Below the pieces are notes generated by a model that was not told the DNA's origin, searched no databases, and was given only the letters and a program-made list of their open reading frames with translations. Below, piece by piece: positions 6,273-8,525 of a stretch of 64,000 nucleotides of DNA. Every line of letters begins with the position of its first letter. The stretch's first letter is position 1. The position numbers and the translations under genes are program-made. The DNA comes from Escherichia coli (lineage in GTDB: Bacteria > Pseudomonadota > Gammaproteobacteria > Enterobacterales > Enterobacteriaceae), in NCBI RefSeq assembly GCF_003334815.1, contig NZ_QOWO01000017.1, one strand, 5' to 3'.

Positions 6273-8525
6273 ATGTTTTCTATAAAACCAGGACCCAGAA
6301 ATTTACCTATCGACAACCCCACATTGTTATCATGGAACATTACTGACGGGGATCTAAATTCCAAATTAAATACATTAGAATATCTAAACTGTATAACAAA
6401 TATTATTAATTCTTGTGGAGTTTACCCTCAAGGATTAAAAGACAGAGAAATTATATCAACTTTTCACGCAGAAAAAGTTATTAATGATCTGTTAAAAAAC
6501 GATTATAAAATTTCCCTTTCTCCAGATACAACTTACCGAGAGTTGAATAAAGCAGCACAGCGTAGCATTACAGCGCCAGACAGGATAGGAGAAAGAAAAA
6601 CATAGGTTTATCAACGAGATACAATGATTGAAAGAGGTGATAACAGCGGTGTTTATCAGTATGGTCGTGCTGAACATTTCACCCACATTATATCTGACAA
6701 ACCTTCCCCAAAAGATAAATATGTTGCATATGCTATTAACATTCCTGACTATGAGCTGGCAGCCGATGTATATAATATTAACGTGACGTCACCTTCCGGA
6801 CAGCAAGAAACATTTAAAATATTAATCAATCTAGAACATCTACGGCAAACACTTGAGCGTAAATCTCTTACTGCTGTTCAGAAATCACAATGTGAAATCA
6901 TCACCCCCAAAAAACCTGGCGAAGCGATTCTTCATGCTTTTAATGCCACCTACCAGCAGATCAGAGAAAATATGTCTGAATTTGCACGTTGCCATTATGG
7001 GTATATACAAATCCCTCCAGTGACAACTTTCCGCGCCGACGGACCAGAAACTCCCGAAGAAGAAAAGGGTTACTGGTTTCATGCTTATCAACCCGAAGAT
7101 CTTTGTACCATCCATAATCCAATGGGAGATTTGCAGGATTTTATTGCATTGGTTAAAGATGCTAAAAAATTTGGTATCGATATCATTCCTGATTATACCT
7201 TTAACTTTATGGGAATTGGGGGTAGTGGTAAAAATGACCTGGATTATCCCTCTGCTGATATACGAGCGAAGATCAGTAAAGATATAGAAGGTGGTATCCC
7301 TGGCTATTAGCAAGGTCAGGTTTTGATTCCATTCATTAAAGATCCAGTAACAAAAGAACGTAAACAAATCCATCCAGAAGATATACATCTCACTGCAAAA
7401 GACTTCGAAGCAAGTAAAGATAACATCTCTAAGGATGAATGGGAAAACCTCCATGCATTAAAAGAAAAGCGTTTAAATGGAATGCCTAAAACAACACCCA
7501 AAAGTGACCAGGTTATTATGTTGCAAAATCAATACGTTCGTGAAATGCGAAAATATGGCGTACGAGGTTTACGTTATGATGCGGCAAAACACTCAAAACA
7601 TGAACAAATAGAAAGATCAATAACCCCACCGCTTAAAAATTATAATGAGCGGTTACACAATACTAACTTATTTAACCCAAAATATCATAAAAAAGCCGTT
7701 ATGAATTACATGGAATATCTGGTAACTTGTCAGTTGGATGAACAACAAATGTCATCACTGCTTTATGAAAGAGATGATTTAAGCGCCATTGATTTTTCAT
7801 TGCTCATGAAAACGATAAAAGCCTTTTCATTTGGTGGAGATCTTCAAACCCTTGCATCAAAACCGGGTTCCACAATCTCAAGTATCCCATCAGAAAGACG
7901 GATATTGATTAACATTAACCACGATTTTCCTAACAATGGTAATCTTTTCAATGACTTTCTATTTAACCATCAACAAGATGAACAATTAGCAATGGCATAT
8001 ATAGCCGCTCTGCCGTTCAGCAGGCCTTTAGTTTACTGGGATGGCCAAGTATTAAAATCAACGACTGAAATTAAAAATTATGATGGGTCCACGCGTGTCG
8101 GCGGTGAGGCGTAGCTTAATAAAGGTTGCTCTACCTATCAGCAGCTCTACAATGAATTCCACGCATTATATATAGATAAAGCAGGAATATGGAGCGCATT
8201 TGAGGGTGTATCTGCAACTAAAAACGTTCTGGCCTTTAGTCGTGGGGATTCTGTGAACATTAATCACTCTCCTCATGATGGACTAGTTATAATAAATAAA
8301 GGAAACGAAGAAGTTGAAGGTACCTGGCCTAACAAATTGCAACCTGGAATATACAAAAACATGGGGAGTAATAGCGTTAACATTATTATTAATAATACCC
8401 GAAAAATTATCCCCCCTGGTAAAGTATTTACGCTTAGAGGCGGAACTCTAAATATCAATATTCCTGGGCGTAGCGCTCTTCTTTTAGGGAAAACAGGAGA
8501 ACCGCCGAACTATCTCTATTTATAA
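6273..8525 (+). pseudogene. ygaQ: Alpha-amylase-family-like (GH13-like) gene, one continuous frame interrupted by three in-frame TAG codons (6603-6605, 7308-7310, 8112-8114); terminator TAA 8523-8525
   Basis: Four ORF-track ORFs (6273, 6624, 7323, 8253) all in the same frame; motifs GYWFHAYQP and GVRGLRYDAAKH resemble GH13 conserved regions; GAGGAA RBS before ATG 6273. Confidence 0.65.

Follow-up and report, generated by a model that had tools for sequence, protein, structure and literature searches.

What does it mean when a long gene is broken several times over, and every time by the same stop codon? The question is raised by a stretch of Escherichia coli DNA (assembly GCF_003334815.1, contig NZ_QOWO01000017.1), of which one strand of 64,000 nt was analysed and is called the window here. 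An earlier note on this DNA had pointed out a low-GC, amylase-like gene, interrupted exclusively by three in-frame amber (TAG) codons and without any frameshift; random decay was expected to leave a mixture of lesions, and the pattern was taken as a possible sign of inactivation in a lineage with an amber suppressor, or of conditional expression by read-through.

The reading frame itself is not in doubt. Translation of 6273-8525 on the forward strand gives a single frame of 751 codons, ending in TAA and interrupted by the three TAGs as its only internal stops, and the separate open reading frame pieces beginning at 6273, 6624, 7323 and 8253 all belong to it (Table 1). The remaining two frames contain 39 and 86 stops, and the 751-codon frame is therefore a real former coding frame. 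The coordinates, the shared frame, the TAG-only interruptions and the TAA end described in the earlier note are all borne out by the translation, as is the low GC content (37.3% against 50.8% for the whole window), and in the strain at hand the gene was indeed inactivated without frameshifts.

The gene is ygaQ, an already annotated amylase-like pseudogene of E. coli K-12. Compared with sequenced K-12 strains, strain 7A included, 1 nt of 2253 differs (99.96-100% identity), the same three TAG codons are present, and the position between the tRNA gene ileY and glaH (csiD) is that of K-12; the order in a K-12-type genome is ypjA, ypjCB (a pseudogene with an internal stop), tRNA-Ile, ygaQ, glaH, lhgO and gabD. 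In the PGAP annotation it is listed as a pseudogene with an internal stop, under the product name "alpha amylase C-terminal domain-containing protein". By megablast, the sequence is found in about 4,110 of 5,426 complete E. coli genomes, each time as a single chromosomal copy. ygaQ has been reported among the H-NS-silenced, horizontally acquired genes, and has been treated as such an acquisition with an H-NS-repressed intragenic promoter (PMC7229825).

Table 1. Features of ygaQ and its low-GC surroundings, in window coordinates.
Feature	Position	Strand	Remarks and basis
ygaQ pseudogene	6273..8525	+	751-codon frame, 750-aa alpha-amylase-family protein; PGAP, Pfam and PDB-profile matches
Amber 1, codon 111, TGG (Trp) > TAG	6603..6605	+	G>A at 6604; allele comparison
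Amber 2, codon 346, TGG (Trp) > TAG	7308..7310	+	G>A at 7309; allele comparison
Amber 3, codon 614, TGG (Trp) > TAG	8112..8114	+	G>A at 8113; allele comparison
GH13 region II motif GVRGLRYDAAKH, residues 429-440	7557..7592	+	Nucleophile Asp436, Lys439, His440; invariant columns
Codon 463 (Asn) of ygaQ	7659..7661	+	Aligns with the GH13 region III acid/base Glu; by alignment only
Natural terminator TAA of ygaQ	8523..8525	+	Intact alleles end at the same point
Terminator-like hairpin, 11-bp stem	8536..8563	+	11 nt 3' of the TAA; consensus scan only
tRNA ileY, CAU anticodon	5638..5713	-	ARAGORN: Met(CAT); PGAP: tRNA-Ile; edge of the low-GC islet with ygaQ
Pseudogene ypjCB (DUF5507)	3514..4887	-	Same low-GC islet; one internal stop, TAG at 4405-4407, from CAG

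Intact alleles of 750 aa are present in several other E. coli strains (e.g., WP_001551529.1), and six were among those that we compared; they are under purifying selection (dN/dS 0.10-0.22). About 215 aa at the N-terminus of the protein match no family; its other parts are a GH13-like barrel and an Alpha-amylase_C domain. The C-terminal all-beta domain is recognised at residues 649-738 (PF02806, E = 1.9e-6), and the catalytic (beta/alpha)8 domain by a weak match to the Alpha-amylase catalytic domain PF00128 (E = 3.6e-4) together with the matches of a YgaQ family profile to amylases in the PDB (E = 6.5e-21 to 9e-17, the best being Bacillus subtilis alpha-amylase). The call of an amylase-like gene, which had been built on a motif resembling GH13 region II, was thus sound: GVRGLRYDAAKH aligns with GLRWDAAKH of Ruminococcus bromii Amy16, and D436, K439 and H440 of region II as well as H550 and D551 of region IV are invariant in both alignments. 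The premise that orthologues could be found across the Enterobacteriaceae was not, as the family comprises proteins from E. coli, E. albertii (59% identity) and a few distant relatives of about 800 aa at 32-35%, and further out only generic GH13 enzymes are reached. Where the relatives have F[GA]E[TI] in region III, E. coli reads HNT (N463) and E. albertii HIT, and the general acid/base Glu thus appears to have been replaced in the Escherichia clade. An AlphaFold2 model built from a six-sequence alignment was too poor to help (mean pLDDT 38.9) and was left unused, so the apparent loss of this Glu is read from the alignment. Intact YgaQ may therefore not be a conventional hydrolase but a non-hydrolytic relative of the GH13 enzymes, although purifying selection acts on this Escherichia-specific protein.

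The origin of the three ambers is clear from the alignment of the window's ygaQ with 16 other alleles (17 compared). At codons 111, 346 and 614, TGG is found in all six intact alleles and in every allele that lacks the given stop, and each amber is therefore one G>A transition of a Trp codon; reading the sense codon at each TAG was the check that the earlier note had proposed for single-step nonsense mutations, and these are confirmed at all three sites. What W111* leaves of the protein is the 110-aa "YgaQ" listed in the older annotation, and with W614* the C-terminal beta domain is lost. All six of the closest family members have Trp at position 614, and its conservation stays at 90% or more when more distant amylases are added. 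Amber 2 lies within a hairpin at 7299-7320 on the forward strand, CCTGGCTATTAGCAAGGTCAGG followed by TTTTGATT, which a scan flagged as terminator-like; the overlap is probably a coincidence.

The stops are far from universal, and they do not always travel together. Carriers were counted among the 5,426 complete genomes with 41-mers centred on the mutated base, such that the 28-nt exact word of megablast must span that base: TAG614 is the most widespread, with 2,399 genomes, followed by TAG346 with 1,078 and TAG111 with 999, all counts being inflated by laboratory derivatives of K-12. Pigs, soil, cattle and humans are among the sources of the carriers. The haplotypes encountered were TAG614 by itself, TAG346 with TAG614, all three together, and TAG111 alone on mosaic alleles. 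The last class (alleles L004 and L024) is K-12-like in the first 400-760 nt only, and we infer from it that intragenic recombination moves ambers between haplotypes; the same two alleles undermine the use of a strict nested order as proof of timing. The ambers are, in short, polymorphic alleles on independently recombining segments, and three TGG>TAG alleles of known population frequency may be of use as lineage markers.

Ambers are not the only way in which ygaQ has been lost. In the O157:H7 clade, 305 genomes carry CAG>TAG at codon 413; in one strain, GAA>TAA at codon 107 is accompanied by a 1-bp deletion; O104:H4 and another strain have a 1-bp insertion on top of TAG614; IS5 and IS1 insertions are found in ygaQ of other E. 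coli; and 742 of the about 4,110 genomes keep less than 80% of the gene, with deletions at its 5' end. The earlier note had called the all-amber pattern unusual, a reading to be given up if orthologues had frameshifts or other lesions at this locus, and just such lesions are found in other lineages of E. coli: frameshifts, stops of the TAA and TGA types, IS insertions and deletions.

The nonsense alleles of the species were surveyed with panels of 41-mers representing every possible single-step nonsense change on the 17 allele backgrounds, searched by stop type. To be detected by this census, a single-step nonsense allele must have flanks that agree with one of the 17 backgrounds over at least 28 nt (the TAA at E107 of L004 was missed and frameshifts were not counted), and what is counted are sites, not events verified by phylogeny; on these terms, its 23 events comprise 10 TAG, 8 TAA and 5 TGA sites. 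The TAG sites are TGG>TAG at codons 111, 346, 390, 614, 640 and 685 and CAG>TAG at codons 96, 288, 413 and 487; TAA was found at E107, E120, Q246, Q420, Q592, K595, K617 and Q690, and TGA at W21, G108, R115, G285 and W614. One match of the TGA panel (H111), at codons 314/331, was rejected, inspection of the locus revealing the real stop to be G285, GGA>TGA. G:C>A:T transitions account for 17 of the 23 events. Among the Trp codons, TGG>TAG outnumbers TGG>TGA (codons 21 and 614) by 6 to 2 (p = 0.29), and the distribution over stop types agrees with simple mutation models (chi-square p = 0.07-0.23); the census is compatible with mutation biased towards G:C>A:T.

How odd, then, is an allele with nothing but ambers? 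The tests of amber excess were made post hoc, on events that are linked in a single successful and heavily sampled clade where laboratory strains are over-represented; read in this light, simple mutation models give a probability of 1-6% that three of three stops are TAG, and with the frequency of 7/20 taken from the 20 other independent nonsense sites of ygaQ, the probability of three ambers is 0.043 and that of three stops of any one type 0.12. In the window allele, three of the nine Trp codons have become TAG and none TGA, for which naive models give P = 2e-5 to 5e-3. Across the species, all four high-frequency nonsense alleles (W111, W346, W614 and Q413) are amber (P about 0.015 for four of four) and the rare ones are mixed, and TGG>TAG is mildly over-represented among the transitions (6 of 17 against 2.8 expected, p = 0.05). 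The all-amber pattern is a mild, post hoc oddity and no significant anomaly. What had been called unusual is thus real in that the allele is amber-only; at probabilities of 0.043 and 0.12, it needs no special mechanism.

With considerable confidence, we consider ygaQ to be a horizontally acquired, low-GC gene of the amylase family that is dead in K-12, its state explained by three ordinary G:C>A:T ambers and chance. W614* would plausibly have inactivated the gene first, since the C-terminal domain is lost with it; sublineages of that clade would have acquired W346* and W111* in addition, with recombination inside the gene shuffling the ambers among haplotypes. In a gene already dead, any additional stop would be neutral. 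That all of them came out as amber may be ascribed to the dominance of G:C>A:T transitions among the nonsense alleles of ygaQ, of which about 37% here yield TAG, and for the rest to small-number chance. No full-length YgaQ would be made, and the window strain would produce at most a 110-aa N-terminal fragment. This is a known pseudogene in ordinary decay, and the result matters little in itself: ygaQ is already catalogued in K-12, and its amber-only pattern calls for no special mechanism.

ygaQ is not alone in its surroundings. The low-GC stretch extends from about 2500-3500 to about 9000 and has at its edge ileY, whose CAU anticodon is presumably lysidine-modified. The ypjCB pseudogene in the same islet has a TAG of its own, which, like the three of ygaQ, corresponds to G>A when read on the + strand; intact ypjCB alleles, from O157 and other strains, have CAG or CAA at the stop position, and another strain is frameshifted instead. 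Together with the four common nonsense alleles of ygaQ, this further amber is among the observations that speak against ordinary decay.

The first alternative is that the truncations were selected: after W614* had left a truncated and possibly costly or misfolded product, the upstream W346* and then W111* would have been favoured, the benefit lying either in the removal of the product or in a useful 110-aa fragment. The frequencies do fall in the 3'-to-5' direction (614 > 346 > 111), and two of the about eight recent changes specific to the clade are stops. The fragment, moreover, has been reported to confer mitomycin C resistance when over-expressed from the ASKA library, and to have nuclease activity (PMC4725251). 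However, under neutrality a 3'-to-5' order would turn up one time in six, and with TAG111 present on alleles without the other two ambers it is not strict; the reported H-NS silencing (PMC7229825) implies that the cost or benefit of any YgaQ product should be small; and selection for truncation leaves the amber type of the stops unexplained. We find this account improbable. Equally improbable, in our view, is its broader form, in which amber alleles preferentially rose in phylogroups A, B1 and E and are not neutral debris, either because a UAG is milder or was once suppressed or because truncation was selected; if it were true, the stepwise selection of 5'-ward truncations would leave an N-terminal fragment of 110 aa with a function of its own.

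Whichever way the fragment arose, the 110-aa "YgaQ" is the N-terminal stump of a 750-aa protein, made by the W111 amber, and caution is called for when it is used as a native protein. The nuclease study relied on plasmid over-expression, made no mention of the ORF being a pseudogene fragment, and mutated a C-terminal Glu-Arg-Lys triplet that includes Arg108 (PMC4725251). Among the 17 alleles, Arg108 (AGA, 6594-6596) is found only in those of K-12 type, and the others have GGA (Gly).

Less probable again is the suggestion made in the earlier note, that the ambers arose or spread in an amber-suppressor lineage or are leaky enough for conditional production of full-length YgaQ. All four stops in the islet of the window strain are amber, two of the three in ygaQ are followed by C, which makes for a weak termination context, and coliforms bearing suppressors have been reported in nature. 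Yet the stops are derived and polymorphic rather than conserved, and the intact alleles encode Trp, which argues against recoding; with three stops in series, the product of read-through would be negligible; insertion of Gln at W614, invariant in the closest relatives, would probably not restore function; and TGA and TAA alleles arise in ygaQ of related strains. A suppressor is hard to find: none of the four tRNAs in the window has a CUA anticodon, and the supE-type tRNA-Gln(CUA) allele is found in 157 genomes, against about 1000-2400 amber carriers, the carriers listed being almost all laboratory derivatives of K-12 (e.g., C600, DH5alpha, JM109, XL1-Blue, HB101 and TG1). The idea of a suppressor lineage or of read-through is thus unsupported. 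In laboratory strains that are supE or deficient in RF1, the internal UAGs of ygaQ would nevertheless be partly read through. As a side observation, the listed carriers of the supE-type allele include ETEC1738, an ETEC from a pig with a genome of 5.58 Mb and perhaps an amber-suppressor strain of natural origin; a supE-type tRNA-Gln(CUA) copy was also found to be left unannotated by PGAP (tRNA-Gln genes, L025 4431-4617).

Least credible of all is a local, strand-biased process, be it the deamination of cytosines in the template of the lagging strand or the action of a CC-preferring deaminase, that made G>A changes at GG on the + strand: all four ambers of the islet are G>A on that strand, the K-12-lineage substitutions include 13 G>A against 7 C>T (n = 38), the per-target rate in the census is about 1.8 times higher for G>A than for C>T, and the GC skew of the + strand is negative, in a direction that fits the known replication-associated asymmetry of deamination, but the strand asymmetries do not reach significance (p = 0.17), the mutations belong to different haplotypes and times and do not cluster, no Dcm CCWGG sequence covers any of the three sites, and, ambers aside, a G follows in only 4 of the 10 G>A changes. 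Two specific candidates were rejected separately. The flanks of the three codons, ACA-TGG-G, TAT-TGG-C and GCG-TGG-C, are no CCWGG sites and hence no Dcm hotspot; and the polarised K-12-lineage substitutions have no significant strand or context signature of hypermutation, the clustering and strand coordination of deaminase-type G>A change being absent and no dinucleotide context being in excess once the ambers themselves are set aside.

The rest of the window tells something of the strain. Its first 72 or so bases (1-72) do not match ypjA of K-12 and look to us like the end of an IS5 element; ypjA seems to be interrupted by an insertion, and the strain is not MG1655. ygaY (an MFS transporter; 28192-29376, +) is an intact ORF of 394 aa, with seven bases (GCGGCAT, 28447-28453) that are extra relative to an MG1655-like genome in which the gene is annotated as frameshifted. 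At 37667-38114 on the reverse strand, two tRNA-Arg(ACG) genes stand beside a tRNA-Ser(GCT), where the MG1655-like strain 7A has four (argQ/Z/Y/V) along with serV; one two-tRNA repeat unit appears to be missing from the window, probably through recombination between the repeats. The probable IS5 end, the intact ygaY and the two rather than four Arg tRNAs are what sets the window strain apart from MG1655.

Among known systems, genes with programmed recoding or read-through resemble ygaQ in having in-frame UAGs within an otherwise open frame and in nothing else: the UAGs of ygaQ are not conserved among orthologues, and neither a recoding element nor, in the window, a suppressor tRNA was found. 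The likeness of the encoded protein to B. subtilis AmyE (PDB 1BAG, 1UA7) and R. bromii Amy16 (9QF9) goes deeper. Regions I, II and IV are recognisable, and Asp436, Lys439, His440, His550 and Asp551 are kept together with the Alpha-amylase_C domain; YgaQ differs in its extra N-terminal region of about 215 aa, its weak match to PF00128, a Phe in place of the His of region I, and an Asn or Ile aligned with the Glu of region III. For the mutations themselves, the closest parallel is the lacI nonsense system, the classical case of Trp and Gln codons turned into ambers in a single step. There, too, TGG>TAG and CAG>TAG come about by G:C>A:T transition, and the stops are likewise read by RF1, whereas those of ygaQ are natural, fixed in large clades and all outside the Dcm CCWGG hotspot. 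For the gene as a whole, the counterpart is ygaQ of K-12, which the older annotation split into the ORFs ygaQ and ygaR and two further pieces: it stands in the same place, in the order ileY, ygaQ, glaH/csiD, lhgO and gabDTP, and the ygaQ of the window is essentially identical to it.
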